Positions 6,001 to 36,000 of a stretch of DNA of 44,326 nucleotides are shown in pieces. The translations under genes and the position numbers were made by a program. Within the stretch, counting starts at the first letter, position 1, and each line of letters opens with the position of its first letter. Source of the DNA: Candidatus Omnitrophota bacterium (GTDB lineage: Bacteria > Omnitrophota > Gorgyraeia > Gygaellales > Profunditerraquicolaceae); the NCBI GenBank assembly GCA_040754615.1, contig JBFMBZ010000081.1:1-44326 (forward strand), given 5' to 3'. A model generated the notes under the pieces. It was not told the origin of the DNA, made no database searches, and was given only the letters and a program-made list of their open reading frames with translations.

Positions 6001-9000
6001 TTTATTAGAAGATTGCTGTAAGAGAACAGGGATTAATTCTTCCTTGATACGCAAGATAGCTTCATCGGCTTTTCCTTCATCGAATCCGCTTCCTATGTGC
6101 ATACGGCTAGAGCTGCGGATAGAATGAAAAACAGCGTCAAGCAGGGGTAGTGCCTTATCCCCTATTATTCTCCTGAATTCTTCAGACATTACCTTATATT
6201 CTTCTGTCTCAATAGGGGAGCCGGCTAGCCCTTGCCGGGAAGCGGTTACAGCAGCAATTATGGCTGCCCCAACTCCGGAGCCGTCATGCGTAAGCACCAA
6301 CCTGATCTGAGAAGCCCTCCTTTTTCCGAACATCTCCCTGAAGGCCTTTCGCATATTACGCCTGAGATCAGGATTATTTTCAAAGAGGCTTCCGTCAACG
6401 GCAACGGTATGCCGCCAGGATAAACCGGGGTTTATCCTGATTAAAATTGCTCCGTTTACAGCAGCAGTAATTCTCGCAGCCCGCTTAAAAACAATCCTGC
6501 AAACTTCACGCATCATCCGAGCCTCTTCATCAGATATATCTCCAAAAATCCTGCGTGCAACTTTGAAATCTTTTGATTTATCATTTTTGATATTTCCGGC
6601 CTGCTCACTTGTTAACGCATTTTTTCCAGCTAAGAGTTTAGGAACTTCGCCATTAAACAGATAACCTTGCAAGGTCAAATCCTTTAGGACCAAACGCACC
6701 AATTCCCCAAGATATTGCCCTGAAACCATCTTCTCTTCCAACTGCGCTCCGGGCATGCCGGACTCTTCATCGAGCATTTCGTCATACCTATTACGCCGAA
6801 GTATATTGAACCCTCCCGATTCTATATTGATAACCATTGTTGGAAAGTCATATGCGCCTATAGATTTATGGATATCTCCTGTTTTCACTAAAACGCAGAA
6901 GTTTTGCCCGGTGCCCCAGATCATAGCTGTATCGCAATTAGGATCAGAGCGCCCGCGGCAGACAAGCGTGCCTGTTGTATCATTATTAATAGAGATAATC
7001 CTGACATTGCCGAGGCCATGTTTTTTTAGTGCCTTATTAAGCAAAGCAACCACATCCTTACCTACTACGCCCCTGGCTGAGAATTCTTTTGTCCATTTTT
7101 CCAATACGCCTTTGTCTATTCCAAATTGCAGGACCGGGAAAGAAAAAGTAAACCCTCCAAACCGCATATTTTCCTTCTCTTCTTGAAGAAATTCCTTAAT
7201 GCGCTCGGCAATGGAACCAAAAAGCGCATCCGCATCTTTAGAAATCTGTTCATGGGTAAGCTTGTATTTCTTTACGCATACCTGCGGCCTGCGGTTTTTC
7301 TTAAGAGTCACTGCTAAAATGCGTAAATTAGACCCACCTAAGTCAATGCCAAGATAAGTGCCTTCTTCTTTTCCTGTCGGCTTAGCCACGTAAGTAGGCA
7401 GCATCCGAAGAGAGCTCTTTTTGCCGTTTAAACCTAGCTCCATTTCTCTGCGGAAATCGATTACTATCTGATGCAATTCGTCATTCGTTAAGGAAAAATC
7501 TTTACGGATTCCTTTCAGGGCTTGCACAACCGGCGAGCCGGCGGGGCTGCTATTCGTTAAGCCTAATTCCCTGAAAGCCTCTTTTACAATTTCCGGCTGT
7601 TCCAATTCGCTAATAGTATTAAGAATAGAACCGTGTATATTAACTGGGCTAAGCAAAATGGGAGGCAACCTGCCCCTGAACCTCATTATTTCCCTCGTAA
7701 CAGGCAATAATGGCTCGCGATTTATGAAGCTCGCTTTGCCTTTTGCCTGCTCTATCATAATGGCGCGCGGAAGGGCATCCCACGGTTTAACCATATGCAT
7801 AACCAGGCCTAATTCGCCTTCTACCAGAAATCCATCCAGCGTAGTCCGGGCTATCTCCTTTTCTAACATTCCGGTGAAGCTAAGCTTATCTTTTATGTAC
7901 TCTCTATACTTCTCCAAAGGATCTATAGATTTTCCTCCATACTCAAGTGTTCTGTGTTTAACAACTAAGGCTTTTTTAGATGCAATAATATTTAAGAGAG
8001 GAATAATTATTCTTTGGTCATTCACAAATGTTCCTTCGCCTGTAGCGAAAATCAACTTTCTCCCTTCTAAAAGAGGGGCAAAAGAAACTGCTACCACCGG
8101 CATCATAGTCTGCATATCTATGCAAACTATAGTTGTGTCAAATACCTCGCTGCCTTTGCTATACTCTAGAGTCCCGGAAAGAGGGTCTAGAATCCAAGTG
8201 TAAGGCGCTTCATCATTCCATAAAACACCAGGCGTTTCTTCCTCGCTGATGATGTTGTGGCCGGGAAAATGCGTCCTTATAATGTCGCTCAACCTCATAT
8301 TGGCGATTTTATCAGCTTCAGTATGAGTATCAGCAGAAATATCTTCCGGCCTTTTAGATTTCTGCAAATCTAAAAGGAGTTTACCTATTGTCATTGCTGA
8401 TCCAATTGCCGTATTTATGATTTCTTGTTTTATTCCTATGGGGCTGAAAGAGCCAACCGGCGAGCCGGATTTCTCTTCAAAGAATATTTTTGCTTTTTCA
8501 ACAGACCCCGGATACGGGCCAACAGCAATTTCAATCATCTTGGGGTCCTTAGGGAATGCCACATTATGCCCGCTTAGAAGAAGAATTTTGGCTCCGGGAT
8601 ATAATCCAAAAACTTTTACCCTCTCTCCCGATTTCTCATTATTTAAGTATTTATATATGGAAACAATCAACTCTCCCCTCTGGACTATCAATAATTCGGG
8701 TAATGGTAAATCAAGGGGCGTATGAATATGGGGCTTACCAACTTCGCCTGCTAACGGCGCCTTTACTCCAATCCCCAGCGGAAAAGAAGGAGTAGTAATG
8801 ACGATAAATGTGCGCGGCTCAATGTAGCGCCTTAAAACCAATAACAGGTTATCTTCTGCGCCGAATCTTTCAGGATATTCATATCCACTAAATGCCCTGT
8901 AAATCAACTTTTCCCCGGGGTTCCTTCTTGTTACAGAGTGCTCCGGTTGAGTAACCTTCAGGATAAAAGAGTTCCGCAAAGTCTCGATGCTATAGCCGCC

Positions 9001-12000
9001 AAAAGTTGTCATAAGTTCCCCTGAGAGCAAAGACAGAGTTTCTCCGTTGCTTTCCTTATCTGCCAGTGTTATAAAAGTTTTCCCCTCTTCAACATATATA
9101 ATATGCTGGAGCCCCGGCTTATTCTTTGTCCCGAAAGACGCGCCTTCTTTATGGAGGTCGGTACTAATCTCAATCGCAAGCCTTGGCGATGATAAGATGC
9201 TTCGTCTCCTGCTTTTTGAAATCAATGCTAAGACTTCATCCTTCCATAAAACCGGCTCCCATCCTTCCAACGCCGTGAAATCCGTTAATGTAACCGGGCT
9301 GCCGGAAAAGGGGGAAGGTTCTGTTTTCTTCGGCTCTAAAGGCGAGCCGGAGTGGCTATCTTTCCAGTATTTTATTCTTATTATTGTTGCTGTTGTTTGC
9401 GGATGGCTGGAGTAATGCTCACTGTTCGCAGAGAAGATGCCGCGAGTAATTATCCCAATAACGGCAATGGAAAATGCGCTTATGCAGACTACCAAAATCA
9501 ATCCTTCCGTAAACGGCGAGGCAGCAATAGCTTCTTTAAGGGTTAGATTAATTCTCTGCGCACCTATGTCAGTGCGACGGCTTGAGCCTGCGCAAGGCCC
9601 TGCCGCCGGGTTTCTGTGTACAGCATTTCCAAGCAGTTGCGCGCCAAATGAACTCATCAGTTTAAGGTAAGCTAAGGTAATCAAAATAAATGGGGACGGT
9701 TCTATTTTCTTCGGCTGCATGTTTAAAATAGAAACGTCCCTTTTGAGTAGGCGCGGAAAAAAGAAGGCATTATTTCCTGGCAAAGAAACAGCTAAAGCAG
9801 AATTGTTGGCTTTGGTGGGAGACTTGGAACTTCCGGAATCTTCCCGCGTTGTTCGGGTAACAACCATACAGCCTAAAGGCGGAGCCCTAACACGAAGGAT
9901 TTCCGAGATAGGCGACCCAGAGCGCGCTTCTTTTACCCTATACCAAACATCTTCTCGCTCCTCAAAGCCGAGCCCAACAAGAACGGTAATGGCCTCCTCA
10001 TCAGAAAACCCTCCAGCATTGTATTGCCTAAGCATCATGCCCAAACTCATCCCAAATCTGGGGTTAACCGGGAAGTCTGAATTTAGCCTGGCTTTAAAAT
10101 CCTCTAACTCCCGTTTTTTAATTCTGCCTTTTTCCTGCCAAGCTTTTCTTCTTTCCGGATCAGTCAACAATTTTTCTAACTTTTCAGGGAGCGTTTCTCC
10201 AAAAATTACCCTGATCTTTGCTTCTTCCTCGAAAATGACTGGTTCGATCATCAAAGCTGTGTTGGCGCGACTTTTAAACCATCTATGCCTAGAAAACCCT
10301 ATTTTCTTTAAATAACTGATTTCATCATCCACAATTAACCAGTCGGTAACAGTTAGCTGTGCAAGTGCAGAACTGTCATCGGCATTCATAAACGGGTAGG
10401 AATCATGCATCATGACAACTTCCCTTGTTTCAAGCAATTCATGGAGAAGAGCAAACAGCAAAATAAAAGGGAATGATTGATTGTGCAGCAATACTTCTAC
10501 CTTAGAAATCACTTTATCTTTGCAGTCATAATGAATGCCTCCCATACCGCCACACATTGAGCCATCTGGTACTAAGCGATGGTTCTTATGAGGCGGTATC
10601 TCTGCCAAAGCTATTGTTAACAAAATATTTTTTTCTAAGAAAAATTTGAATAGTTCCGGGGCCTTTTTATTAAGCCAATTTATGATGAATTCGGTTGTCT
10701 TTTCCAGCATTAGATCGGGATTGCGGAAGAAAAATGAAATCGTCTCGTAGTCGTATTTATTTCGTCCTATTGCAGATTCGATTTTTTTACGAAGACTCCT
10801 CTTGTCTGATTCAGGAATTTTATTTCTAAATTCTTGGAATAAACATCCCGCTACCGTTTCCAAGGCGCCTAACCTATTTGCCTCTTCGAGATATTTTCTG
10901 TAAGAATCCTCTTCTAAAGAAGTAAACAACATCTGAAAAGAAGAAGGAGTAATTAGGGTTGGGCTGGAAGCGGGCGATCCGGAGGAATATCCGATACCTT
11001 CTAATTCAGCTATAAATTCTCTTCGCTTGTGTTCTCTTGCCATAGTAAATACCAAACGCCAATCTTCACTGGAGTCAAATTTCATACGGAATATGGCTCT
11101 CCCGTGGGAAGATTTATATTCCCAGTCATAGGACGCAGACATTATTATTGTATGCCTTTGTTTTGCATTGCATATGACACAAAACCCTTGTTTATCATAA
11201 GAAATCTCTATGCGTCGGACTTTCTTTTTCTTATAAGAACTTATAATTTGGCCAACTCTGAGATTAGGAGTTACTAACTCGTAGATTACGATTTTTTGTG
11301 CTGTTCCGAAAAACAAATTCGGAAGAGAAATTGAAAGGGCCGGCCATTTTACTGTGTCAAATTCAACTGGGAAAAGCGTCCTTCCATACCAGAAGCCAAA
11401 CAGCCTTTCCCTGGTCTTTCCTAATTCATTGTAAAACTTCTTTCTTTCTTGCTCAATTTCCTGCTCAGTTTTCGCTCTTGGGCGAGAAGTCCCCGTTTTT
11501 TTCCTTTCTGCTCTTGCTCTTTCTCCGGCATCTTCTGCCCTACTTACCGCACCAACCTGCACTCTTTCGTCATATTTCTTGCGCTTCTCGGGATCACTCA
11601 ATACTTCATATGCTTTTTGTATCGAAAGCCACTCGTCCCCTGCTACCCCCCCACTTTCTTTAATCCTGTCTGGATGGTATCTCATAGCGAGCTTCCGGAA
11701 TGCATTCCTTATATAAACTTCGCTTGCTTGCTTAGACACACCTAATACAGCATAATAATCCTTTGAATTAGAGAAATCTGGCCTAAGGAATTGATTCTTG
11801 CCAGAGGAAGATTTTTCTTTTGGTTTTTGTTTATTGAATGCCATGAGGTAAGATAAAGCCTGCTTTAACTTCTTGAATGAAACGGCTATTCTATTCAAAT
11901 ATTCTTCAAATTGCCTGGCTAATTTATTTCCTGACTGCAGGATAACCTCTTTTGCTTTGCGCAACCCTAACGAGGCATAATGATAAAAATTAAAGCTAAG

Positions 12001-15000
12001 AGGCTCTTTTTCAGTTTCGAATGCCTCTTCTGCTTGTTGCTCCTTATCGAAAGGCTCCTGACAGGAATAAATTCTGCTAATAAGTAAGTCAAGGGTATCA
12101 CGAATAGAAGAAGAATAATTATATTTGTCTTTGGCTGCTTTAAGGGCAGGTACAAAAACTGGCCCGGTTGCAACAATAATATTGGCGGCTTCTCTAAATA
12201 ATTCCAGGTCATCTAATGCTTCTATGAGAATGGGGATAGCTGCTTCGAGGTTAATATTCACCAAGGCCCTGAGAATAAGTATGCGGATATTTCGGTCTTG
12301 CTCTTTTTCCAAAGCTTCCCTGAGATCAGGAAAGAAATCTTTAGCTTTAGGGCCAAGTAGCCCAAGAGTTTGAATAACATTTGCCTTAAGATGCGAAGAT
12401 TCGCCTCCTAATGCTTCTCTGAAGGTTGGAAAAGCAGGCTCGCCAATCTTGACCAGCTCAAACATCACCCCATAGCAAACATCCGGTCCTTTTCTTAACT
12501 CCTTTATTAACTCCTGAATACGAGGATTCTCTTGCTCTACTACCGGCGAACCGGACACTTTTGTTACGATTAATTCGCGAACGCCTTCAAGACTCCAAGC
12601 AATTGCCCAGGGAGCCCCTTCTTTATCTCTGGCCTCGTCTCTCTTTTTTGCCAGTAAACGCACCCCGGGAATTCCGGTTTTATCCGCCGCTATCATATCA
12701 GAAGGCTCATCTCCTACAAATACCAGCTGCCTGGGGGGGATGTTTTTATTTTTTAAGAGAGCTCTTAATTTCGTTTCCTTGTCTGATTTTTCAGGGGCCC
12801 ACGGAATAGCTGTGCCGGTGATAAACTTTTTGAGCCCAAAATATTGAAATAGAGGATCCAAGATGTTGGAAGATATGTGCGACACTAAATAGATTTCTAT
12901 TCCTGCAGCACGGAGTTGTTTTAAAATCTTTTCTGCGCCCGGTGATGCCTTTACTTCGCTTGTCTCGATGTAATATTTAATCCATTTCTTTATAAATGTA
13001 TTAATTGCCTGCTCAGTCCAGCTTTTTATTCCCTCCCCGGCATTCTTTGGGGCTTCCCCATTCACCTCAATAAATTCATCAACGCGTTTCTGTCTTGCCA
13101 TTCTAAAAAGCTCTCTAATCTGCGCCAAGCGGGGAATTTTCCCTTCGTTCTCCCCCGCGTATTTTTCTCCCTCTGCAAAAAATTCTCGCTCTCTTTTTGA
13201 AGACGAATCATCTTTATTATAAATAAACTTTGCTTTCGTTGGGTCGTTGCACCTTACTAAATTTAAATAAAGCGCTCCCATAAGGCGATTGACAAATGGC
13301 CGTAAGTCTTTAAGTATCGTCCCTGCCACATCAAACGCTGCTACCTTCATATTCTGGGGCTGCCTGGATGGGTTGACTAATTCAAAGACCGGAGAACCGG
13401 CTTCGGAACTGCCCGAATTTGAGCCCTCTTCAATCTCCATTAATCTTCTCAGATTTTCTATCCTCTCTTTCACTAATAAATAATCAAGAAAGGAACCAAA
13501 TTTGATTATTAAAGGAGCTCTTGCCGTTAAATTTAATTTTTGTGATTCTAGATGCATCTCCAAAGTCTCGTCAATGAATAAGGAAAACTCTTTCCAGAGA
13601 TCCTTAAGGGATTGTTTAATCGGAGAGCCGGAAGTGGTTTCTCTTAGCCTGTACCAAACGCCTTCTCGCTCCCGAAACCCTAAGCTAATAAGCGAATCGA
13701 CGATTATTCCTTCAGAAAGCCCATCAGGATTGTATTTTCGGGCTATCAAACTTAAACCCATGCCTAATCCGGGATTGACGGGAAAGACAGAATTTATCCT
13801 ATCTTTAAAAGCACTTATCTTCCGCTCTTCCTCGCCGGCTTTCTTCTCCCAGGCCATTCTCTTCTTAGAATCAACCAGTAAACCTTCCAGTTTTTCCGGT
13901 AGAGCTCCTCCAAAAACTTTTCTTATTCTTGCCTCTTCTTTAAAAATTATTTCTTCAATTCTTCTGGCTACATGAGCGCACACTTCCGGCAGCTCGTTTT
14001 TAAGCTGTCGTATTTTCTTAAAGTATCCTATTTCCTCATCCGTAATCAACCAATCGGTAACGTTTAACTTTGAAAGCAATCTAAATCCCTCTAAAGAAAT
14101 ATTCGGGTAGGAACCATAAAGTTCAGCCACATTCCTTGATTCCAGCAATTCATGAATAAGGGCATACACGCAATCAAAGGGAAATACCGCTATATGCAGA
14201 TAGACATCCACCGCCGCAACTTTTCTTTCCTTAAAATTAAAATCAATGCTGGATTTAGCCAGGCACATTCTTCCATCTTCCATTAAAAGGTGGCCATTAT
14301 AATCAGGGACTTCTGTTAGGGCGATTTGTAATGAAATCCCTTGTCCATCAAAATAGTCAAATAATTCCGGAAATTCCTCCTTAAGCCGGCTTATTAAGAA
14401 TTCAGCAGTCTTAGAAATTAACAATTCCCGGTCCTGAAAGAAAAAGGAAATTATTTTGTAATCGTATTGATTCTGGCTTACGGCAGATTCAACTCGTTGA
14501 TGAAGCCTCTTTTGTCCTGACTCGGGGAGCCTCTCCAATAAATATTCCATTATCGGCTTCAAAGCGCCTAAGCTATTTGCCTGCTCCAAAAACTTTCTGC
14601 AGGCTCCTTCTTCTTTCGGATTCAACAAAATCCCAAAAACGGGCTGAACGATAAGAGAGGAGCTGGAGAGGCCCTCCTCAAAGAATACTTTTGCTTTTTC
14701 AACAGACCCCGGATACGGGCCAACCGCAGAGCTGGCCTTCTTTAAAACAAATACCGCCGGCGGCAAGGGGTGGAATCTACCTTTAGATATGCCGACGAAT
14801 TGCTTGCTCTCAACCTCAAGCCCAGGTAACTCAAATTCTTTCTGCCATTCTTCTTCGCTATGTAAGTTAGAGGCTAGCGGAATATTCGTGTTGCCCGTAA
14901 CTACATGGTTAGCCAGCCAATCAATAATAATTATTAGGTCTTTCAGCTCCCTGGGATCTAAATCCCTTAAATAATTAACCAACTCCTCTTCATTATTGAG

Positions 15001-18000
15001 CGGTTCTTGCTTTAATAAGGCATTCTCTATGACTATTATCCGTCCTTTTGGCTTGAGGATTCTTTTTGCTTCCAAAAGAATTAAATCCATAGCTTCAATT
15101 GCAGTTCTGGAGAGAAGGTCGTTTAATATAACTTTATCCGCGCTTGCTTCTTCCAGTGGAATATTACCGGGGGTTTCCTGCAGGATAAAAGACGTGTTAT
15201 CCTGGCCCCGGTATTCCGGGCCTCTATCGCGATAGTCAGGTATAATTGTTCCAATAAACCAGGTGTCCCTTATATTCCTTGCAATAGCAATACCCAATCT
15301 ATCGTCTTCGCACCCGATATCCGCGACAATATCACCTTCGGAAATTAGGCCTTTAATCATATTGAAAGTAGCCAGGTAACGCGCATCCGCCTTATAATTT
15401 GCATAAATTCCATGGTATTTGTTTTCCCTGCTAATCCAATAAAAGCCTCCCTTATAAATTGCCTGGCGTGCTTCATCTAAAGAATTACTCTTCTCAAGTA
15501 AAATATTAACCAGCTTTCTTACTTTTCTAGTGGGGATACCGAATTGCCCGTAGCCAAAAGTTAATAATCTTATCAGAGCATCCTGCAGGCAAGGGCTTCT
15601 CTCCAGGGATTCAAGCAAATCGCTTCTGACAAGAGGCGAACCAGAGCGGGAACCGTAGATTACATTTAACACGAGTTGCGTATATTTCGCTACATCTGTT
15701 GCATAGTTATCATATAAACCGAAGGGGTAATCAGGCAAAGAAAATTCCCCGTGAGAATCATTGCCTGGCATACCGGGAAGGACACGTATAGGATGACTCC
15801 CATAAAATGGGTGGGACATATTTAATTTTTCCACGTCAGATGAAAGGGCTTCCTGTAAACCATTATTTCTTACTTTGTTACTGAAATATTCCAGCCCCAG
15901 GAAACTGCCTGCCGGCAGCGCTCCATGAATAACCGCCATCGGGATAGCCCACTCCAAGATATCCTCCAGCGTCCCCGCGCTATTCACTTTCCTTTCATTA
16001 TCCCTTATCTCGTTAGGATGGGCGATGCTGAATTTTGCCTTGCTGATTTTTATGAAATCCAGCAGCTCGTACCAGGTAAGGTAATATTTTTTCTGCAGAT
16101 TATAGAAGTAATCATCAAGGCCGGTAGGCTTAAATTTCTTATACCAGACCCCCTTGGCAAAAGTTATGCCTTCTTCTTCTAATCTTTCTCTGTGCCTGGA
16201 AAACATTGCATCAGAAACCAGAGAGCCGTATAATCTTGATAATTTTGGAGACCGGTTTATTCTCTGCAAATCCTCCAATTCAACGCTCAAATCCGGGAAT
16301 CTTCGGTTGGCTTCAGCAAGCAATATTTCAACTGCTTCGTTTCTTTTGGCATCAAGCACCTGCATTTTATTTAAAAGGCCTCTCGATGCCAACTCCTGGT
16401 TTTTCTTAATGAAAGAGGACCTGAACAATTCGGGAATATACACTAAGAAATGCACCTCTACCCCAGCGTAAAACACCGTAAATTCTGCTCCGGGAATTAA
16501 TATTAGCTCCGGAATAAAGCTTCTTGAAAGTTGATTGAATTTAGCTATCTCTCCGTTAATTATCCTGACTGCCCGCAGAGCTTCCCAAGAGGTCAATACA
16601 TCGTGATTGGTGATAGAGAAAGCCTTTAACCCAAGCGTAAAGGCTAAATACGCTTTATAAACCGAGGTATCAAACCCGTCGCTATTGAAGTCGTGGCTGT
16701 GCAAATCGCACTGCCCTTCGCAGGGGCGCGGTAATTTAATTTCGGGCAAGACTATGGGCAAAATCGTCCGCAAAGCCCTTAATCTTAAACCTTCCCATTC
16801 GCTACCCACCACTCCTGACATAATTCTATTAGCGGCAACTCTTCTTACGCCAAGGCCTGTTGAATCTAAATCGGATTCAAGTCTATTAATTATTGCTGGA
16901 TCCCGAATAGTATGAGCCTTCCCATCTTCCACAGGTGAGGCAGCAATAGCTTCTTTAAAAGTTAAATTTGTCCTCTGCCCCACTGGAGAGCCGGATTTAT
17001 TACGGTTTAAATTGGACCCCCTAGATGAGCCTGGTAGAAGTATTGGTTCGAAAATGAAAGGAGGACTCGCATTTCCTCCACTTATTATGCTTCTTGCCTG
17101 CTCTATAAAACGTCTATCCCCCGCCTTATTAATGGCTCTTTCAAGTGCCCCAACGATCTCTCTCACATGCTGAACTTCAAGCTTGGTTCGCTCATACTCC
17201 TTTCGGTAGCCTGCATCCTTCCTAACTAAGGCATCAACTTGAGCATTCAGAAGGCTGCTTATTTCGTTCAAGCTCCTTATATCGCCATCTCTAATCCAGA
17301 GAAACCGCTTTTGAATAAGGGGGTCCTTCATCGCGTCTTCTGGCCCACTATAAATTCTATATTTATATGGGTGGACACTAAGCAGCCAGTTTGCGTGCTC
17401 TACTTCCTTATGTATTCTGCTTAAGCTTTCGCTTAAGTAAGCCTCCCCTAAAAGGGCTGCAAAGAATATTTCACTAAGTAATACATAGGGGCTGGCATGA
17501 GCAAAGTATTTCCTGAAAGATTCATCAACGAAGCCTTGATCCGGAAGCTCTTCTTCCAATAGTTCATGAAAGATAATTGTTAATCGGTTATGCCTATACG
17601 CGGAATCCAGTTTTGCTGCTCTCTCATAATTGATTCTATGAAAATAGGTTCCTGGCTTTATGATTTCGGGGTGAATCGAAGCGTGGAAAGGGAAATCCCG
17701 GATTTCAGGGGCTATACTATTAATATTCGGGATGGCGGCTAATAACTTTTCACTCGTTAATTTTCCTTTAATTCGATTTTTTTTCGCAAACCCGTCTCTT
17801 GCCTCTTGGACTTTTTGATAATCCCGCACCGTGAATATAAAATTTCTTGTCAAGTCCGCATAGCGTTTATCCTCAATCTCTATAAAACCGATTGCCCTCG
17901 CGAGCTCAAAGAAGTCCATTGCCATAAGCTGCTCAGCGGCCCCAATGGCTGACAATCTCTCTTTGGCCCTTCGAATAGCTGCTAAATAATCATCTCTCTG

Positions 18001-21000
18001 TTTAAAGGGATGGTAATGATTCCTGCGCGACAAAGCCGATTCGCTATCCTCATAATCTCGCTCTTCCATCGGAGAGCCGGAAATGTAACTTGCACTCCAA
18101 GAATCACTGTTTCCGGGCAGAATCCGAGAACCTGCAAAAATTGTATCTGCTCTTTGCGCACCTATGTAGGGTAGACGGCCTGTGATTGCGCAAATCACAG
18201 CCGCCAGAGTCCTGCCTACCCAGCCATTAAGCTGTGTGCCGAAGGTACTCATCAGCTTAAGATAAGCCAAGGTAACCAAAAGAAATGGGGACGGTTCTAA
18301 TTTCCCCGCCTCCCCTCTTAAAATAAATAATAGGGAGGGTTCTAATTTAGGCACGGAGCCGAAGAAAATATAACCGTCCCCATTATTCAAAGGCATAGAG
18401 TGGCGCTTGGGAAGAGTGCCTTGTGAAAATGGGCTGCTTGCGTCTTCCTGCTTTGTTGTAACATGCACAACCGCGCCGAAGGTAAGCGGGGAACCGGCTG
18501 AGAATTTAGCGCCAAGATAGTTAACAAGCTTATAATCAGCTCCGTCTTTTATGGCCATAAGAGCTCTAAATACCTGTTCGAGATCCTCAGGATTAACATC
18601 CCTTCCTCCTAAGCCATAGATGTAATTAACCAAATGCGGAGCCTGCATATTTGCATAGGCATCATGGATATCCGAAAAGAGAGGCCCGGTACTTTTTCCA
18701 AAGGATATGCTGCGATCTAACACAGCTATTGCTTTTACATTCTTGAAGGCTTCAACAATGGCCTGCGTTGGGAAAGGCCTGTAAACCCTTATCTTGAGTA
18801 GTCCGGCCTTTATCCCCCGATTGCGCAGTTCATCTATCACCATCTTGGCAGTGCCGGCTGTAGAACCTATGAGCACCATCGCCACCTCAGCGTCATCAAG
18901 ATGGTATGCCTCAAATAGGCCGTATTTCCTTCCGGTTAATACCGCATAGGCCTGACTTACATCTTGGATAACACGTAAAGTGTTCATTAAAAGCTCCTGC
19001 TGCTTAAGCCTGATCTCCATGCAATATGGCGGTAAGGCTACGGGGCCAAGAGTAATGGGATTATCGGTATCCAAAAGGTTGATGACTGGCTCAAATTCCC
19101 CGATAAAGTCTCTTACCGCTTTATCAGCAATTATTTTTGCAGGTTGAGCTTTATGGCTGGTAATAAAGCCATCCTGCCAGGACATAACCGGAAAACCGGC
19201 CTTTTCAGCAATACTTACGGCCATAATGGTATTATCGTAAACTTCTTGGGGATTCTCAGAGCAAATATTTATCCAGCCAGCGTCCCTGGCGCCCATACCG
19301 TCGGTATGGTCGCAGTGGATATTTAAAGGCGCATTTAAGGCCCTGTTTACCAGAGACATAACAATGGGCAACCTCATCGCAGCGGCAATAGGAAGGACTT
19401 CCCACATATAAGCCAGGCCCTGGGAAGAAGTAGCTGTCATGACTCTTGCCCCTGCCGCAGCCGCGCCGATACAGAAGCTCATTGCGCTGTGCTCGGATTC
19501 AACCGGGACAAATATCGTTTGTACCTCTCCATGAGCAACGAATTCAGCGAAGAACTCTATAATTAAAGTTTGGGGAGTAATAGGATACCCGCCCACCACA
19601 TAGGGGTCTATCTGGCGCATAGCTTCAGCCGCAGCAGCGTCTCCTATTAAGGCTCTGGTTGGAATTCCTTCCTCTTGCGGGTTAAATATTTTAACGAGCC
19701 CTTCCCTTTGCGGAATAACACCCTTTAGCTCATTGTGGGCTCTCTCAACTGCCCTTACGTTAGCTACGACAACTTTCTCAGGGAATTTCTTGGAGAATTT
19801 TTCTCGCATCTCTCTTGTAAGCGCTTCTATAGGCATTAATCCGGTTGCCTTCAATAGTGCCCCCAGCAAGGTTGTGTTGGGAACGAATTTATTAAGCTCA
19901 TCCATAGATATCATTGTAGCGTCAACAGTAAGGATATGAATATTCCTGCCATTTGTATTCAGTTTTTCCCTTAAGAGAGGCTCTTCTTTATTGGTATTTA
20001 TTAAAACAATCCCATCTTCCTTAATGCCTTCGCATACATCTACGATATCAAGAAGGGTATCATCTAAAACAATCACAACATCCGGAATTTTTACCTTGTC
20101 CTCTCTTCTAATAGGCTTACTGCTTATACGGTTAAAACCAAACATAGGAGCGCCTGTGCGCTCAAGGCCAAAATCAGGAAAACCTTGCGCAAAATAGCCT
20201 TCGTGAATTGCTGTTTCGGCTAAGAGCTCGGCAGCAGTCATTGCTCCCTGCCCGCCCCTTCCGTGCCACCGGATCTCTATAGTGTCTATTGGAGAGGCGG
20301 AAGATTGTTTGTCGCATAACTTTTGAAGCCCATCCCAATTTTTATCTATTTGTTCTTGGAGAGCGGAAACGATTTCCGGGTTTTTCTTAAGATGGCTGAA
20401 GCGGCCTTGCTTAAAGAGCCACTCATTCACCGGAATTTTTTGCTTTGGCGTATGGGTTATGCGCCAGATGCCATTTTCAACTTCATAGAGAGGCCAAATA
20501 CCACATTCTACTGCCTCAGCGGTTATTTTCATCCCCTCCTCAACCGGCGTTTTCCATCCACGAGGACAGGTTGAGATGACATTGATAAAGCTTGAGCCTG
20601 GAACATGTAGCGCTTTTCGCAGTTTAGTAAGCAAATCTCTCCAGTAGAATGGCGCAGCCTGGGCAATGTAGTCAATATTATGGGCAGCCATAATCTTAGT
20701 TAGATCTTTGCTTTGCTGGATTTTCCCAAAGATAACCTTGCCAGCGGGGGTAGTAGTGGTAGCTCCGCCAATGAGCGTTGCTCCTGAGCGCTGGTTGCCG
20801 GTATTTTGGTAGGCCTGGTTATTGTAGCAAATAGTTAAAAGCCTATGCCCCCGTTCTACAGCTCCTGAGAGGGCCTGTAAACCAATATCATATAGCCCGC
20901 CATCTCCTCCAAAGGCAATAAAGTTGATATTTTTCTCTTCGGGTATCCTTCTGCGCAGCTTTAAAGCCCTATAAGCTGTTTCTGTTCCGCTTGCATTTGC

Positions 21001-24000
21001 AGCTACGTTCGGGAATGCATTATGGATTAAAGGGACTCTCCAGGCAGTCTGGGGGAAAATAGTAGTAACTACTTCCATGCAGCAGGTGGCTACTGAGACA
21101 ACCGTATCCTTACCGGAAATAAGAAGCGCTAATTTAAATATTACGGGAGCAACACAACCAGGGCAAGCCCTATGGCCTGAACTTAATAGCTCACCTCTCT
21201 TAGACAGGCTTTTTAGATTTAATGGTTCATCAAGCGAAAGAAGCAAACTTCTTTCTTGAGGCAAGGCTTCTTTTTTGAGTGGTTCTGGTTTAGGTAGATC
21301 ACTTTCGGACAACATCTGTATTACCGGCCCGCCCTTAGCAGGGTCTTTTTTCGGGCACTGGGCTGCACAGATACCACAACCTTTGCAGTGGTCCAGGTCT
21401 ATTCCCGTAACTCTTCCTTCTTTTACCTTTATTGCCATGTCCGGACAGAAGAGCCAACAGGTTAAACAGTGAGAACACTTTTCAGGATTGAATATCGGGC
21501 GGTTGATTCTCCATGAGCCTGTAAAATAATCTTCCGCATTCCCGGGAGTAGAAATCAATCCGGCGTATTCCTGAGGGTCTAAGTCTATCGGAGAGCCCCC
21601 AATAGAAAAATCTTCCGGCCTAAAGTCAAAAGGCCTGGTATCTCGAATGACTTCCATAATAGGCTTGCTATCTTCAACGGCCTCAATAATTGGCCTTACG
21701 TGCGACTGCAAAGGCTCTTTTAGCTTCCCTAAAATTTCTCTTACAACCTTAACGTCAATTAATGCTGCAGTCGCAAGATGATACATTGCCCTGGTAGCCT
21801 CATTGTAATAGTCATACACCATGCCGAGATTAGCATGGGCTCTGGCATATTTAGGATCGAGTTGAATCGCTCGGCGAAAGACAACCCCTGCTTTTTCAAA
21901 GTCTCCTAATTCCGCATAAGCTGCTCCCAGGTCACTATTTGTAATTGGATTGTCTGGGAATATTTCTAAAGATGCCTTAAATGCTTCCACTGCTTCGGAA
22001 AATTTCTTTAAATTTAGGTAGGTTACTCCCATATAATAATAGGCCTGGGGGTCGCTGGGGTTACTCTCAATGATTTTTTGGTAACAGTCAAGCGCCTTGT
22101 CAAACTCTTTGAGAAGCCTATAAACCCTGCCGAGGTTATACAATATGTTATTATCGGAATAAAATTCTGCGGCCTTTTCCCATACCTTTCTTGCTTTTTC
22201 CAGATTCCCGGAGTCGCCGTATATGGCTCCGATAATATTGTAGATGTGGGGATTGAAGGCGTAAGAGGAATCAATTACGTTTATCTCCGGATAGGATGCA
22301 TTTAATGAGTCTTCGTCAAACTCCTGAATTTCCGCAGTTGAGAAATTACAAAGTAGAAGCTTGTCAGTTGCTTCAACAGGAACAATAACAAAGGAAACCC
22401 CCTTACACCTTGCCACCGCCGCTGCAAAGCCGAAGAGTTTCAAGAGAATATACGCTAATTGAGCTAAGCTGTAAGAAGTTAAATATTTCCCGAATTCCTC
22501 TTTGTCCTTCCTGGGAATTATTTCTGCAGCCTGTAATAAATCAATAATATCTCTTGAAACGAAGATGTCATCCGTAACAAGCGAATTTACAAGGCTCTTA
22601 AATATCGGCAAAAGGTCTTTTTGACTGAAAGAAAGAAACAGCTTCTCAATTGTTCTTTTTGCCTCTTCTACATCAAAGATATTTATGCCCTGAGTTTCTT
22701 TAAAATTAATTTCCTGTAAAAATTGGATAATTGCTTCTTTAAGCTGCGGGATGTTTTCATGCGGATAGCCTAACTCATAGAGTATCATTGTTAAGCCATT
22801 TTCATTTTCAATAGGCGAGCTGGAAAGCGCTTTCGCGCAGGGGAAAATAAAAAATTCCTTGCCTGCTGGTAATAGCGGAGGCCCGGTAGTAAATACCGAA
22901 CTTATGTAATTACCCAAAACAGGCAAGGTTTTTCTTGATAAGTAAAAACTGGACTTTGGACTTAACGAATTTAGCAAGTTGCGAGCTGACCTCCACCCAC
23001 CCGTCGTTACTGGTTTTGCCCTGGACCGAACCGTTTGGCTGAATAAGGAAGTCGAATTCATACCACCAGCTGGGGTGGTGCGCGAAGGCAAAGATTCCGT
23101 CTTTTCTGAGTAAAATCCGCGTAACCTCAAGGTCCTGGAAATGGTAGGTATTGAACATTTCATTACCTCCTGGTTAAAATTGTTATTAATAATTATAACC
23201 GGCGAGCCGGACTGAAGGTTAAACGCAGCTACTAATTCTTCTGCCGGAGGAAATCGCTCTTTAACTGAAATATCCGGGTTGCATTTTAGCATCTTCTCCT
23301 CTTTTTCAGGATAAAGGAGCGCCAAGGTATAAATTTTACTACCAGGAATTCTTGCCCGAACTTTTCTCGCTGCTTCCATCTCTCCGCAGCCATCTCCTAT
23401 TATTAAGGCATTGCTGCCGCGATTACCCGGTTCATTTAAGATTAATTCAATGGCTGTCTCCTTATTGAATTCTCCCTTAAATGACGGCCATGAAAGCGCT
23501 CCATAAACAGCCAAGAAATAATCCCCAAGGCCAAGGGCCTTAACTAAATCAAGTGTAAGATAACTGTTAGCGGTAAGGATATACTGCTTGGCACCCCTCT
23601 TGTGCAATTCTTGAATAAACTGCATTACTCCTTCAACGAGGTATTGGCTTAATTTCTCTTTCAGTTCTTCTTTGTTATCCTTAATATACTGCTTCTGCAT
23701 TTCAATGTATTCACCTAACCAAAATTCGGCATCGTGTTTCTTAGTAGTGCCATCCTGGCTCATCTCTTTGATGATATCCCTATAAATATCTATATCCGGC
23801 CGTCCGAGATGCTTCTTATAAATTTTATTGGCCTCTAAAAATTGTTCTGCTTCACCAAGAGGCGCATCATTAGATAAAATGCGCGCTATAATAGTTGTCT
23901 GCATATTCTCCCAAGCTTTCGGCGGGACTTTAAAAATAGTAAGGTCCCAATCCCATATAAATACCTTGAGCTGCCCCTCAATAGGCCGATGCACAGTAAC

Positions 24001-30000: not shown

Positions 30001-33000
30001 GTCATTAAAATGCAGGACATCAAACTGGATGCCTAATTTTTCCTGAATGATAAACGGTGCGCGTGACAATACTATTCCCTCAACATACCCGCCGAAAGAA
30101 TCCGGATGAGGCTGGCTGTAAAGTTTAACAAAAAGGTTTCCGCTCTCGTCATACAATAAAAAGACCGGGACGCCAAAGAAATCCTCTACATAAACGAGTT
30201 TAAAGGGGATGGTTCCCAGGCCGACAGGTATCTCTAAATTCTCCATAAGGACTGCTCCGTCATATGCTCTCAAGAATTCCTCTAAACTCCCGTAATTATG
30301 CTTTACATCCGCAGAGTGTAATGCTTTTAGGTTAAAAGAAGCGAAATCATGTTCTCCTAATACTCTGGGTAATTCCATTGTATAAAGCCCCTGCCCACCC
30401 CCCTTGCCGTCTACATGTTTTAACCTATTGCCTTTTTTGTCATTTAAAACCATCTCCATAGCGATAAAGCAGACGGCAATCTTGCCTGACTGCCTGGCCT
30501 TATTAATCCGCTCTATTATCCTGTTCTTTATCTTTTGATTTGTGTCAAGTTCTCTAAGGCCAGTTACCGGAGATGCCGAGCTGATGCGCGAAATGGTTAC
30601 CTCATCGGACTTACGGTATAGCCCGAATCTATCCTGCAAAGTCACTAATGCTGCCCGGGTAACCTCCACCTCGCCAAAGAATTCTGTGCGTAATCCTTGA
30701 GTAGCTTCGTATAGCTCTTTAAAATTATCCGGGCTGATAATATCTGTAATCCGGCCCAATGCAATATTGACTAAAGGAGTGCGCCTGCGTACGTCAGGGT
30801 AAGCCTCGGTGAGCCTTCTTTTTAATTCAAATATATTCTCATCGTAAACATGGCCCTCTACGAATAAACATCCGTCCGGCCCGAGATTCACCCCTTGGAA
30901 TATTATTCTTATCAGGCCGGTCCTTTTAAAGATTGTCGTTACCTTCTGGGACATTTCGTCATCTAGTTTCGGCGTAAACTCGGTTACCTGCCCAAAAGGA
31001 GTGTCATAAACAACAGCAAAGATTGTGCTGTGCAGCAAATCCCTGGGCACCGGATTAAGCGCACCGGATATCTTATTCATCATGTTGACGATGGCCGCCA
31101 TCTTATCAAGCATCGGGCCGGTTAAAACCGGGTCTTTAATAATCAAGGCTACGGCGTAATGGCCAGGATTCCTGAGAGGGTCAGGCGCTTTATTATTTAA
31201 AACCATTTCCCCGGTTTCCTTCCAGATAGAGGCGTAGGCATTCTCTAAGCTATACCTGTCTGTAACGGGCAGAAACCCGTTAATCGAAGAAGAGCAGGCT
31301 CCGGATTGCAGGTTTTCTCCTGCCTGTTTAATAATTTCGAAAGAGAGATGCATTGTAAAGTAATCCAGATGCTCAGTGATATAGCGCAAGGAAACATGCT
31401 CCACTTTGTAATATTCATCCGGAGGTGAAAGGTTATTATCGGCAAGCCATCCTGCGAGGCTCATTAATTCTGACGGGTCTTCTAATAGCGGCCAAATCGG
31501 CAAATCCCATAAATTCGGTCCTTTCCTCATAAGCCCCGCCATAGACACTATCTTTCCATCTGCTTTGATAGGCATGGCTATGCGGGCTAAGATATCTTCG
31601 GCCCTTTGGCCGAATAACAAGCCGTCTTTATTGGGGAGAATATCAAAAATGCCTTTAAATATTACTGCCCATTTAATCTTCCATTCGGGCTGTTCTCCTA
31701 CTCTTACCGGAGCAAAATTAACAAATTGATTCGCGCCTATAGACAATTTAACCCCTTCCGGGCTGGCCGGCACCAATGGCACCGTAAATACTGCAGAACC
31801 CTTCCCAATGCGTGAGCCGCTGGCAAGTTTAGATAAATAAATCTGAGCGCCTTCTTCTATATAACAGTCATCTCCTATTATCGTATGGTAGAAAATAGTG
31901 TTTTGGCGGACCGTTGAGTCTCCTTCTATAAACCCGCCCTGGATTAGCTCATCGGGACCGATTGCTTTCAGGATGATGTCTCCTTCAGTTAAAGAACGGG
32001 TGCTCCTCATCGCCGTGAAATAAGCCGTGTCGCTTCCGTAATCTGAATACATTGTATTTGGCCCTGCAACTTTAATCATATGTAATGGCGCCGGCGCGTA
32101 TGTCCTTAAGCCTTTCTGCACACGCTCCCAGTGCTGTGCATGGTAAGCAACAAAATCCTGGAGAGCCTCTCCTTCCAAAACCCTGCCAGCCAGTTTTTCT
32201 TTAAGGTATTGTGATTTGCTTTTCAGGGCTGCCGAGTACCAATCCGGAGAAAGATTTATCTGATATATAGGTAAAATGGCCTGCACCCTTCTTTCAATTT
32301 CAGCCGCCTCTTCCACTAAGCTTCTTAAAACTCCTTTATAGCGTGCAGGGTTAGAATCGCTCCATATTGTACTCGCGGTATTTGACATAATCTGGCGGCT
32401 ATATATTTTGTCGGAGCTAAAGCTGATTCCCCATTCTGCTTGATGTATTCTCATCTCGTCTTTAGAAGGCTTTTCTTGGAAAGCAATTATTTCATGGCCC
32501 TGCTCTCCCTTTGTCTGCCTTAATACAAACATACCTAAATTATTGGCTACTTCATCAATTGTGGCGGGGTTGCCAAAGAGGCTTATGCCGTCAAATACTT
32601 TTTCGGTCTCTGTAACCAAACACCCGTCTCCGTTAAATATCCCAATCCAGCCAAAGGGGATGCTCTCATTTAGTTTCCTTTGGAAGGTTTTTAGCTTGTT
32701 CATAAATAATGTGTGCTGATATATGCCGATGGAAACAATATCTATCAGGGTGAGCAGTTTTTTCCTTCTTTGCATCTCCTTTGCCAATCTGCCGTTCCCT
32801 AAATTGGCCATTATCGGCATGAGTACTTTTGAGGCTAAGCGTGCAGTAAATCTTGTGCCCAGCCCTCCGGCCTGTTTAAATACTACCCGCGCCTGCGCCA
32901 GCACTTCAACTATTTGCTCCCAATTCTCTAAAATCTGCGCTGCGGTAATATCTTCGGCGGGAATATCTGTGATGATGCCGTATTTTACCGCAATATCCCG

Positions 33001-36000
33001 GCAAATTTTAAGCATTCCTAAGGCAACCACGCCATTGTCTCCCACGTTATTCCTCTCGCCGAACTTTTCTTTATGCGCGGGGTTGACTACAAAAATATAA
33101 TTTACGTCATCGCGATAAACCACTCCCCTTAGCCTGTTCATCATAAGCTCAAAATACTGCGCCTGGCCTTCGTTCCAGCAGGTCCATACCTCGTAATCAT
33201 AGGAAGGCACCTTACTGCAGATAGCCTCATCCCAGGCAGGAAGCATAACCTCATAAAATGTGTGGTTTATTAAAATTATAGACTCTAAATTATCAAGTAA
33301 ATAATAAATCTTTTCAAGCCGCTCCCCGGCGTCATTTTGTAACCCGCTTAGAGAATTTAACTGATTATGCTTTTCCTTAAGCGGAACAAGATACTTCTTG
33401 ATAAAATCCCGGTAATTATAATTCTTGGCCTTTGACTCTGCTCTCCATAAATTCCATACATTGTTAATTAATTCGCTTAGCCTGCTTATTTCTTTGTCAA
33501 TATCTTCCTCCCCTTCAATCGGGCTTCCCGCGGACTCGAGATTAATAATTCTTGTTTCGCTGCGGTTAAGCCCAAATTCATCCTGGGTAGTAACCAACTT
33601 CGCATTAAAGACTTCTATCTCTCCTATTTCTTCTTCGATGAATTCTGTGACTTTTTGGAAAAGTGCTTTAAATTCCTGCGGCGTAACCTCCCGCACCAGC
33701 CTTGCCAATATTATAGAGGGATTGTGGACTCGCCTTCTTTCGTCAGGATACTCAGTTCTCAATCTTGACAGTAAGCCTATTGCCGCCTGTTCGTCTACGA
33801 ACCGGGCTTCTGCAAATACTTCCCCTCTCATAGTTAACCCTATGCCCATTAATCTGATTTTTATGGGCCCGACAGACTTCATTATCCGTGTAACTACCCT
33901 TGCCATTTCTTCGTTGCAATTTAACACCGATTCATCCACTTTCTCTAAGGGGATGCGATTAAGTATGCAAAACAAATTGCTATAGAGTTGCTCACGAGAA
34001 ACAGTTTCTAACGCATGGCTCCCGAGAGAAAGCACGCCGCTGATTGTCATTAATTTATCCACTATCTGTTTTTCCATTGTATCTTTATCAGCAATCAAGC
34101 TTATTGAATAACCGGGCGTATTCTTAAGGGGCTCTGGAACCCTACTCTCTGCTATCATATTCGCGGTTATCCTACGCACTGCTTCATAAGTAGGCCTTAT
34201 TATATAGGTCTCTCTATACCCGGGCACTGTTATTGTTTCGCCGGTTGCTGCGGCATCAGGGAATTCTCTCTTTTGCAGAATTTCTGCTTCCAAAGACAGG
34301 GTAGGCAAGGGCAGGTGGCTCTTGATTAATCTGACGTCGAGAGAAGGTTCCCGGGATAAGGCTGACTCAATGATAGCCATAAGCGCGCTTATCTGTGTAT
34401 TTGCGATAATGCCCCCTTTAAACACGCTACGTAAAGCCATGTAACAAATATTCTCTCTGATGCTTAAGGTAATCTGCGGAATTCCTTCTATATATAAACG
34501 GTTCTTCTTGGACTGTATGCGCTCTAAGTTGCCCACCAAATCAATCATTGCATTTTCTATTTTCTTTAATGCCACTTTTAATTCAGTCTCGGGTTTGAGC
34601 TTAAATTTCTCGTGCATATATTCAAGGAGGCCTTTCTGCTCAAGGCTTAATCCTATGCCTTCTATATCCACGTCTCTTAATAAAGTTGTGTCGCTATAAC
34701 GGCTTTTCAGTGAATTTATAAATATGGCGAGAATAATAAAGTTTACAATATTCTCTTTTAAAGGCTCAAACCTGGTCTCTGTTCCGGATTCCTGGCCAGT
34801 GGCTACTTCCACGAAGAGGGTCTTTGTAAACCAGGTATGCATACCAGCCAGGTTTGTAGGCTGGAGCCCGGGCTTGGCCTTATCCAGCTCCCAACTTTGC
34901 ATGCTAAACCTTTGCTGGCCAAGCAATTCATTCCTATAAAAACCTAACTTGTATGGTTCCTCCTTGCTCAGCCTATTAGGCATCCCTAAAAAGCTAAAGA
35001 CTTCAGAAATTGATAAATTGCTGCCTATATACAAATCCTGAATATAGCCCACAATATCCAGGAGATAATTGGCAGTATTGAATAAAGGAAAGTATGTTTC
35101 CACAGACCTGTTTGAAAGCGCTTTTAAGAATTCCGGGCTTAAGCCATTGGCAAAAGAAGGGTCGCCAAAAGGCACTATTGCAATCTCTTTGATTTGCTCT
35201 GGCAATTTATTGGCTTCTTCTGCGGTCAATCCGTCTTTTCTGGCAGAAGGGTCAAAAGGATTAAATAACCCCGCTTCATCCATCTGCCATCCCTCCAAAA
35301 GGCCTTTGTTCTGGCCAAATTCTCTTAGGCTTTCAGGTATAAAATCAGGCCGCAGCTTAACCGCAGTGCCTCCCCCCTGCCCTGCGGGTTTTTCTGCCAC
35401 CTCGTTAATCAGGTTCGCATCTGTAAGGTACATCATGGCTAATAATACCGGAGAAATATTCGCCGCGCGGTTATCTACGTTGGATATAAAATTATACCTG
35501 TAGCCCTCTTTTAACAAATCAAAGGCTGCCCCTGAATAGATTAAGTCCAGAAAGGCAGAATCATGCCCGTCAGGCCAGGATACATCCTCCCATTTTTTAT
35601 AGGGGTAAATACTCCTCAGGAATTCTCCAGTATAAAGATGGTAAAGCTGGCCCGTAGGGACACGGATTATTCTTATATCTGAAACATATTCGGTAGGATG
35701 CTCATAGTAATTCCTCTTTGTGCTGCTGGGATAATACCCTAACCGCACCAGCTCCTCTCTTATATCGGAGTCGGTAAGAAAACTCGTGAATATGACTACG
35801 GGTATATTTTTGTTTAAATAACCCTTAAGTTCGGAATTCACAAAATTTACCTGCGCCAGCGCTACCTCAATAATTGTCCTTACCCCGTCAATGGGCACGG
35901 AATATACACCCTTTGCTTTATCAATAGTAATCTTTTTACCGTCCGCAGTGCAGACTACTTCTGCATAGCGGGTGCCTTTTCCCCCCGCTGAAATTATATT

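Follow-up and report, generated by a model that had tools for sequence, protein, structure and literature searches.

Our analyses identify a complete 2-oxoacid:ferredoxin oxidoreductase (OFOR), with its four subunit types joined in the order delta-beta-gamma-alpha, inside a giant reading frame that spans a 44,326-base stretch of DNA from a Candidatus Omnitrophota bacterium (assembly GCA_040754615.1, contig JBFMBZ010000081.1; the whole stretch is hereafter called the window). A five-residue peptide, termed here the junction motif, recurs along the encoded chain and stands at native subunit ends of this enzyme. Taking the identity of the module and its processing together, we consider it somewhat probable that it is an active pyruvate:ferredoxin oxidoreductase (PFOR) of a multi-enzyme giant gene, which would be released by cleavage at the junction motif. 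The finding concerns a known enzyme family in a new domain arrangement, within a class of giant genes that has been recognised only recently and is little understood.

Reports on Omnitrophota have described giant multi-enzyme proteins, including a class designated 'multi-enzyme metabolic cluster' (bioRxiv 10.64898/2026.06.07.730766), and cleavage of giants by C39 or S8 domains has been proposed, the cleavage points being unknown and this gap blocking further analysis (bioRxiv 10.1101/2023.11.21.568195). Whether proteins of 10,000-150,000 residues persist as one chain or are cut was left open in these two preprints, neither of which mentions OFOR or PFOR modules or a recurrent boundary motif, and our literature search found no paper combining Omnitrophota with polyprotein. 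The OFOR offers a sharp test case, with subunit boundaries, stoichiometry, cofactors and dimeric state known from crystal and cryo-electron microscopy structures; it is by virtue of these structures that the motif can be seen to fall at native subunit ends and on a beta-gamma link without precedent.

A complete oxidoreductase within a giant reading frame

One minus-strand frame of 14,775 codons (positions 1-44325) runs through the entire window without a stop and off both of its ends; in it, many enzyme units are separated by 29 junction motifs. The longest run in any other frame is 243 codons or fewer, and the plus-strand GC skew is negative across the whole window. All features described below lie on the minus strand. 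The OFOR module occupies positions 18484-21600, corresponding to residues 7576-8614 of the giant chain, and its Pfam domains follow one another in the same frame as Fer4 (7610-7660), TPP_enzyme_C (7797-7916), POR (8024-8197), POR_N (8235-8455) and PFOR_II (8479-8582), with E-values ranging from about 1e-7 for Fer4 to 6.7e-66 for POR_N (8.1e-37 for POR and 1.8e-31 for PFOR_II). The best NCBIfam models are PorD, PorB, PorC and PorA, matched nearly end to end, over positions 5-77 of 85 (PorD_Arch), 9-297 of 300 (PorB), 2-174 of 177 (PorC) and 6-372 of 387 (PorA_Arch).

The delta part, a PorD-like ferredoxin domain (residues 7581-7668, window 21322..21585), reaches 95 bits with TIGR02179 (PorD_KorD; cutoff 60) and is followed by a connector of about 32 residues, rich in proline, lysine and glutamate, that separates the PorD profile match from that of PorB and carries no junction motif (21226..21321). 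PorB-like beta comes next (residues 7701-8008, 20302..21225; 327 bits with NF008819), and then PorC-like gamma (residues 8014-8204, 19714..20286), which scores 200 bits with TIGR02175 (PorC_KorC; cutoff 81) and matches 2raa at 3e-53. A second motif-free connector, of about 16 residues (19666..19713), lies between the profile match of PorC and that of PorA and leads into PorA-like alpha (residues 8221-8609, 18499..19665; 443 bits with PorA_Arch), which comprises POR_N and PFOR_II. The best relative in the PDB is 9bt4, the four-subunit PFOR of Methanosarcina acetivorans, with E-values of 5e-80 for alpha (9bt4_B), 3e-66 for beta (9bt4_C), 3.5e-43 for gamma (9bt4_E) and 6e-14 for delta (9bt4_G).

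An earlier note on this DNA, made from the letters alone, had described the four OFOR subunit types in one frame and in this order. The full-length Pfam, NCBIfam and PDB matches of each part bear out that description, and POR, POR_N, TPP_enzyme_C and Fer4, the profiles it had named for a search, were all matched, which identifies the segments as OFOR subunits and not as unrelated sequence. The motifs it had quoted were located at the places given for them: two CxxCxxCxxxCP motifs in delta, CSHCLTCWLFCP (21442-21477) and CKGCGICAAQCP (21352-21387), GDGG.YDIG in beta (as GGDGGLYDIG, 20881-20910), GRGGQG in gamma (residues 8022-8027, 20245-20262) and GYPITPQT in alpha (19567-19590).

All eight cysteine ligands of delta are present (7617, 7620, 7623, 7627, 7647, 7650, 7653 and 7657), providing for two [4Fe-4S] clusters. 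For beta, the criterion applied was GDG-X(24-27)-NN together with four cysteine ligands for the proximal cluster: the thiamine pyrophosphate (TPP)/Mg site is kept as GGDGGLYDIG...CYNNQAYQNTG, and Cys 7721, 7724, 7749 and 7920 align with cysteines of 9bt4_C and 1b0p. The count of beta cluster ligands suggested earlier is thereby four out of four, and the loss of a cluster or TPP ligand, named at the time as a sign against the enzyme, was not found. In alpha, YPITP is conserved along with the residues aligned to Thr31, Glu64 and Arg114 of 1b0p, which include the TPP-activating glutamate and the substrate arginine. The hallmarks of the OFOR superfamily, namely the Pyr domain and domain II of alpha, the PP domain of beta and the GxGGQG of gamma, are all found. 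Judged from its sequence, the module is a Por/Vor-type OFOR, most like pyruvate synthase, and is very likely to be catalytically competent.

The opposite proposal, which sees in the OFOR segment a relic, in decay or without catalysis, or an assembly chimera, serving at most as a scaffold, can point to three equivalog cutoffs that are missed (327 bits against 405 for PorB, 443 against 550 for PorA_Arch and 212 against 270 for PorC), to the poor modelling of delta, and to a G+C content and GC skew at 18-22 kb that are slightly off those of the neighbouring sequence. The subfamily models TIGR02175 and TIGR02179 are passed. However, each cofactor ligand and catalytic residue checked is intact, the parts share 50-64% identity with canonical subunits, no stops or frameshifts interrupt the 44 kb, and the frame continues into both flanks, each of which shows the same motif system. 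With all ligands intact, we rate this proposal as extremely improbable. Since the PorA, PorB and PorC cutoffs are missed, pyruvate is only the presumed substrate, and another 2-oxoacid may take its place.

In an AlphaFold2 model of the 1,039 residues as a single chain, the mean predicted local distance difference test (pLDDT) score is 74 and the predicted template modelling score (pTM) is 0.70, so that alpha, beta and gamma are placed confidently relative to each other, while delta is poorly modelled (pLDDT about 50-59). Foldseek matched the modelled alpha to 9bt4_A with a TM-score of 0.86, beta to 9bt4_C with 0.83 and gamma to 9bt4_E/F with 0.93-0.94. The pLDDT drops below 50 in the delta-beta connector (model residues 83-122), in the gamma-alpha connector (633-645) and at all three junction motifs of the module, including those at model residues 432-439 and 1028-1039. 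Foldseek was also tried as a test of the global arrangement against single-chain PFOR and was uninformative, returning only per-subunit matches, because its alignment is sequential and the order is permuted.

A subunit order outside the known arrangements

Loci for comparison were fetched by scanning two collections (GTDB, and JGI/ENA metagenomes) with peptide words of the window, and the four parts were located in them by tblastn. The order gamma-delta-alpha-beta was found in all 52 GTDB loci and all 66 JGI/ENA loci carrying more than delta, whether complete or cut by a contig end, with the exception of one Elusimicrobiota locus (L001) described below; for the two scans together, the loci other than L001 that show this order number 115. 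In the loci of both scans, the canonical por genes usually lie in different frames, and identity to the window is 42-55% per part, rising to 64% for delta. Four-subunit enzymes (PorABCD or PorABDG, such as the M. acetivorans PFOR 9bt4 and the Thermotoga PorC 2raa) resemble the window in all subunits, ligands and folds, but they are encoded by separate genes in that order, whereas the window holds one frame with fused delta-beta and gamma-alpha pairs and a junction motif between the pairs.

Single-chain homodimeric PFOR of the NifJ type (Desulfovibrio africanus 1b0p, Moorella thermoacetica 6cin) shares the catalytic domains and, like the window, has delta (domain V) directly before beta (domain VI), but its order, alpha (I-II)-gamma (III)-IV-delta (V)-beta (VI)-VII, is a different one, and identity over alpha is about 29-30%. 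A HMMER alignment with 1b0p breaks into five non-collinear pieces, with alpha at 22-382, gamma at 410-612, delta at about 677-760 and beta at 958-1156, and the single-chain PFOR model TIGR02176 gives 239 and 80 bits against a cutoff of 911. No segments corresponding to domains IV or VII of single-chain PFOR were seen in the window. Two-subunit OFORs (actinobacterial KorA-like proteins such as P0014, and Sulfolobus tokodaii StOFOR, 5b46), in which fusion of gamma to alpha is common, have POR, POR_N and PFOR_II in the same order as the gamma-alpha part of the window, with 36-40% identity of their large subunits over gamma and alpha, but they lack a delta domain and have beta as a separate gene, and the alpha of the window is closer to Por-type alphas.

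Delta-beta-gamma-alpha is no circular permutation of either the canonical operon or the single-chain order, in agreement with the proposal of the earlier note that the set is permuted relative to both separate por/vor/kor genes and single-chain PFOR. It can be read instead as two fused pairs, PorD-PorB of 428 residues and PorC-PorA of 596 residues, in which the passage from delta to beta corresponds to the domain V to VI link of single-chain PFOR and that from gamma to alpha to the large subunit of two-subunit OFORs. The sole connection without precedent is the one from the beta C-terminus to the gamma N-terminus, about 10 residues long, which carries the junction motif SASPI. The known OFOR domain arrangements have been summarised in a paper on the T. 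kivui PFOR (PMC8091585), and delta-beta-gamma-alpha is not among them.

Proteins of the Fer2-GltD-Fer4-beta type (the P0091 class) were considered as a precedent for the delta-beta fusion and rejected, since delta is still a gene of its own at their loci and the ferredoxin domain they carry is of the Nqo3-like kind. Two loci in the comparison (L123 and L124, those of P0103 and P0101) hold por operons with gamma, delta, alpha, NuoE-like and NuoF-like genes, followed by a protein of about 1,065-1,085 residues that joins Fer2, a GltD-like NAD(P)H oxidoreductase, a ferredoxin domain and PorB; they have the look of an OFOR variant linked to NAD(P)H. Many of the closest stand-alone betas (P0062-P0120, 49-63% identical over the aligned part) contain an intein or homing-endonuclease insertion (PF14890, PF14528) in the TPP-binding domain, which the beta of the window lacks.

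A recurrent junction motif at unit boundaries

The pattern [SGA][SGA]SP[ILFVM] occurs 29 times in the giant chain, against 0.53 copies expected (2,000 shuffles, maximum 5), an enrichment that, like the domain E-values of 1e-15 to 1e-66, is far beyond chance. Information is limited to five or six positions, [SA]-[GAS]-S-P-[VILFM], often with glutamate or threonine next. Serine in the motif is encoded by AGC, AGT, TCT, TCG, TCC and TCA, thus by both codon families, and the glycine and proline codons vary as well, which points to selection on the peptide and not on the DNA; a DNA-level repeat or cloning scar is ruled out by the same variety. None of the 29 copies lies inside the profile-matched domains, which make up 30% of the chain (P = 3.5e-5). 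Many stand 2-19 residues from profile ends: +7 for PorD, -7 for PorB, +2 for PorC, -19 for PorA, +3 and -7 for hexokinase, +9 for inositol monophosphatase (IMPase), and +12 and +15 for HAD.

Around the OFOR, GGSPI (residues 7576-7580, 21586..21600) lies immediately upstream of delta, PorD_Arch aligning to residues 8-80 after it. SASPI (residues 8009-8013, 20287..20301) separates the native C-terminus of beta from the native N-terminus of gamma, the PorB profile ending 7 residues before it and the PorC profile starting 2-3 after. AGSPL (residues 8610-8614, 18484..18498) closes the gamma-alpha unit, with the end of the PorA profile match about 4 residues ahead of it, and ASSPF follows 19 residues further on (18427-18441). 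Junction motifs had been placed by the earlier note at 21586, 20287 and 18484, and these positions proved to be the low ends of the three boundary motifs. Neither the delta-beta nor the gamma-alpha connector holds a motif, which leads to predicted products of 428 residues (delta-beta) and 596 residues (gamma-alpha).

Further motif sites include 43732-43746, 30565-30579, 12541-12555, 7528-7542 and 6211-6225. The units they delimit are mostly 220-670 residues long, about the size of a single enzyme, with a few spacers of 15-19 residues and a few long motif-free stretches. Short motif-to-motif spacers of 15-19 residues were noted at window 16930-16995 and 9511-9525 (giant residues 9111-9132 and 11601-11605), and the peptide NLT[FL]KEAIAASP[VF] is repeated ahead of two motifs; by analogy, the spacers and the repeated peptide are reminiscent of the spacer peptides of processed precursors. 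The motif-free portions comprise the last 2,070 residues of the window (giant residues 12706-14775) and the stretches at residues 1393-3598 and 4588-6467.

The same order in other large proteins

An exhaustive HMMER search of 1.84 billion cluster representatives yielded 13,847 relatives, of which the best 150 were inspected for order. Among these 150, the same single-chain order (Fer4, TPP_C, POR, POR_N, PFOR_II) was found in seven large proteins from metagenome-assembled genomes (MAGs): P0001 (1,609 residues; Elusimicrobiota, GCA_043810025.1), P0121 (1,589 residues; Krumholzibacteriia), P0122 (1,649 residues; from a MAG labelled Cytophagales), P0123 and P0124 (2,865 and 2,693 residues; Omnitrophota), P0147 (3,703 residues) and P0156 (MFH1415288.1; 5,785 residues, partial; Elusimicrobiota). 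Accessions within this set of seven are MBU1862349.1 and MCX5666750.1 for the two Omnitrophota proteins, MFQ5510699.1 for the one from Krumholzibacteriia, and MCP4458292.1, and these fusions are unpublished. The earlier note had called such an enzyme unexpected in a giant chain; the order is indeed unusual, but it is not isolated. The fused MAG proteins, at 1.6-5.8 kaa (thousand residues), have the OFOR within large multi-enzyme proteins, whereas the frame of the window exceeds 14.8 kaa.

Identity between the window and its seven fused relatives is 30-46%, below that to canonical subunits, and in neighbour-joining trees of alpha with bootstraps the nearest leaves to the window were always canonical alphas and not the fused proteins. 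One origin or repeated origins of delta-beta-gamma-alpha both remain compatible with these distance trees, which cannot tell independent fusion from a fast-evolving fused clade. An NCBI MAG and an independent Logan assembly give one and the same P0123, which adjoins rpsB-tsf-pyrH-frr; this shows that fusions of the kind are real genes and not assembly artefacts. In P0124, a phosphotransacetylase domain precedes the OFOR in the same chain, which supports acetyl-CoA as the product in that lineage, and in P0147 a GltD-like NAD(P)H module lies upstream of the OFOR.

P0156, named phosphoglycerate kinase at NCBI, contains two M16/M16_C pairs (insulinase-type processing peptidase) at about residues 1480-2360, and its modules are separated by hydrophobic helices. 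Judged by eye, the N-termini of five of the seven fused proteins (P0001, P0123, P0124, P0147 and P0156) are hydrophobic and resemble signal peptides or anchors, which is odd for a cytoplasmic Fe-S enzyme. Directly downstream of P0001, the same Elusimicrobiota locus (L001, 14989-20052, GCA_043810025.1) encodes a protein of 1,687 residues in which phosphoglycerate mutase (iPGM) and enolase domains are joined; several enzymes of central metabolism have evidently been combined into large proteins in this lineage.

Cleavage or tethering of the giant chain

The reading we favour is that the giant chain is a polyprotein. A site-specific endopeptidase, encoded outside the window, would cut at or beside [SA][GAS]SP[VILFM] and free the delta-beta chain of 428 residues and the gamma-alpha chain of 596; these would take up TPP, Mg and, in each protomer, three [4Fe-4S] clusters and form a dimeric PFOR, which would convert pyruvate and CoA into acetyl-CoA, CO2 and reduced ferredoxin. 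We favour cleavage because the motif is short, invariant, exposed, selected at the protein level and located at native termini, and because spacer peptides are present, the beta-gamma connector is minimal and OFORs must dimerise. A recurrent short site at unit boundaries, as expected of a polyprotein, is what the chain displays. Known processed polyproteins, such as viral replicase polyproteins and the multi-effector MARTX toxins, likewise carry many units per chain with a short recurrent boundary peptide, but they bring their own protease and their cleavage has been proven experimentally, whereas the window has no protease that we could find, its cargo is housekeeping metabolism and its cleavage is a prediction.

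Several observations weigh against processing of an active PFOR. Besides the missed equivalog cutoffs, no peptidase family was detectable in the 14,775 residues by profile searches (E <= 0.05-0.1), and no close relatives of the tested modules were found in the collections searched with OFOR, IMPase plus hexokinase and glycogen-synthase queries; the relatives that these queries did return are ordinary-sized or distant proteins, the nearest ones of the three modules being 33-64% identical and drawn from mixed phyla. A look-up of sequencing runs listed none that contains the window. The junction motif was not found in the seven fused relatives, which evidently keep all four parts in one chain, and the structural model suggests that alpha, beta and gamma may be able to pack in cis even with the short connector.

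These last points are the strength of a different explanation, in which the enzyme stays tethered without any cleavage, its parts assembling in cis or two giant chains pairing, with the motif serving as no more than a conserved hinge, cap or docking element. Seven MAG proteins of 1,589-5,785 residues hold delta-beta-gamma-alpha in one chain without the motif, and at least P0123, with its two concordant assemblies and its rpsB-tsf-pyrH-frr neighbourhood, is real; the single-chain pTM of 0.70 and the lack of a protease domain in the window point the same way. On the other hand, a plain flexible linker needs no invariant Ser-Pro core selected at 29 sites, and the beta-gamma connector of about 10 residues contrasts with those of every motif-less relative, which are 48-210 residues longer. 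OFORs are obligate dimers (1b0p, 6cin, 9bt4), and for such an enzyme it seems awkward that two chains, each longer than 14,775 residues, should pair through a single internal module; the 15-19-residue spacers between motifs, moreover, look like spacer peptides of processed precursors. We judge tethering to be rather unlikely, while taking it seriously as a competitor.

Separation might also proceed without a protease, by 2A-like co-translational skipping or by an autocatalytic N-to-O acyl shift at serine. The invariant Ser-Pro core, the small residue before the serine and a window with no visible protease would suit this idea: proline performs poorly as a peptidyl acceptor, and pyruvoyl enzymes and SEA domains cleave themselves at Gly/Ser-Ser bonds. 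Yet conservation ends at five or six residues and the motif lies in segments predicted to be disordered, whereas 2A and arrest peptides depend on some 15-20 conserved residues upstream, and an autoproteolytic site on a folded domain that surrounds it; bacterial ribosomes, moreover, are not known to carry out 2A-type skipping. With nothing conserved around the motif, we hold protease-free separation to be very improbable.

Other enzymes of the giant frame

Pfam domains of many unrelated enzymes, belonging to more than 15 distinct enzyme or repeat families, are distributed along the giant chain. They include an NAGPA-like glycosidase, HD domains, several methyltransferases, two UDP-glucose pyrophosphorylase-like (UDPGP-like) modules, two glycogen/starch synthases, HAD phosphatases, TPR and HEAT repeats, DnaJ, an inositol-monophosphatase-like module, a eukaryote-type hexokinase and an HD/RelA-SpoT module. 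A frame of at least 10,000 codons with many distinct enzyme Pfams, the mark of Omnitrophota-type giants, is therefore present. No marker gene is present in the window. The window shares with these giants frames of more than 10 kaa built of many distinct enzyme Pfams, as well as diverged internal paralogues; the Pfams of the 'multi-enzyme metabolic cluster' class that match it are starch synthase, GT1, HAD, methyltransferase, hexokinase, HEAT/TPR and HD (bioRxiv 10.64898/2026.06.07.730766). Signal peptides and/or transmembrane anchoring have been reported for 94% of Omnitrophota-type multi-enzyme giants. While those proteins are mostly predicted to be membrane-anchored, the window has almost no hydrophobic segments: only five hydrophobic peaks, all weak, were found along the 14,775 residues, and the two termini of the protein lie beyond the window.

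Among the internal paralogues, two UDPGP-like modules at giant residues 1348-2307 and 2266-3278 (window 37405-40284 and 34492-37530) are 27-46% identical. Residues 9887-10241 and 11120-11478 (window 13603-14667 and 9892-10968), which have no Pfam match and end in SGSPI, share 44% identity, residues 3329-3599 match 4311-4584 (window about 30565-33342), and the two starch-synthase modules match one another. The eukaryote-type hexokinase (Hexokinase_1/2, 1e-57; window 6226-7527) forms a motif-flanked unit directly after the inositol-monophosphatase-like unit (7543-8454). Database matches to these two units numbered four, namely three vertebrate hexokinases (33-36%) and one unnamed protein of 438 residues (38%). 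A weak HD_4 and RelA_SpoT pair, resembling a (p)ppGpp synthetase/hydrolase, ends the final residues of the window (giant residues 12706-14775, window 1-6210).

Implications for the giant-gene class

On the sequences compared, delta-beta-gamma-alpha is to be added to the arrangements of the OFOR superfamily, in at least eight proteins from little-studied phyla, and oxygen-sensitive, cluster-rich enzymes of central metabolism belong to the repertoire of giant genes. More tentatively, and with confidence somewhat short of even, we propose that this gene, longer than 44 kb, encodes a true cellular polyprotein, made as a single chain that a simple code then divides into some 25 housekeeping enzymes, including a two-chain PFOR. 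If so, bacterial giant proteins would have in the junction motif their first defined processing code, and the PFOR would be the first Fe-S/TPP redox enzyme known to arise by polyprotein maturation. The main value of the OFOR module lies in providing a well-understood reporter of whether, and where, the giants are cut.

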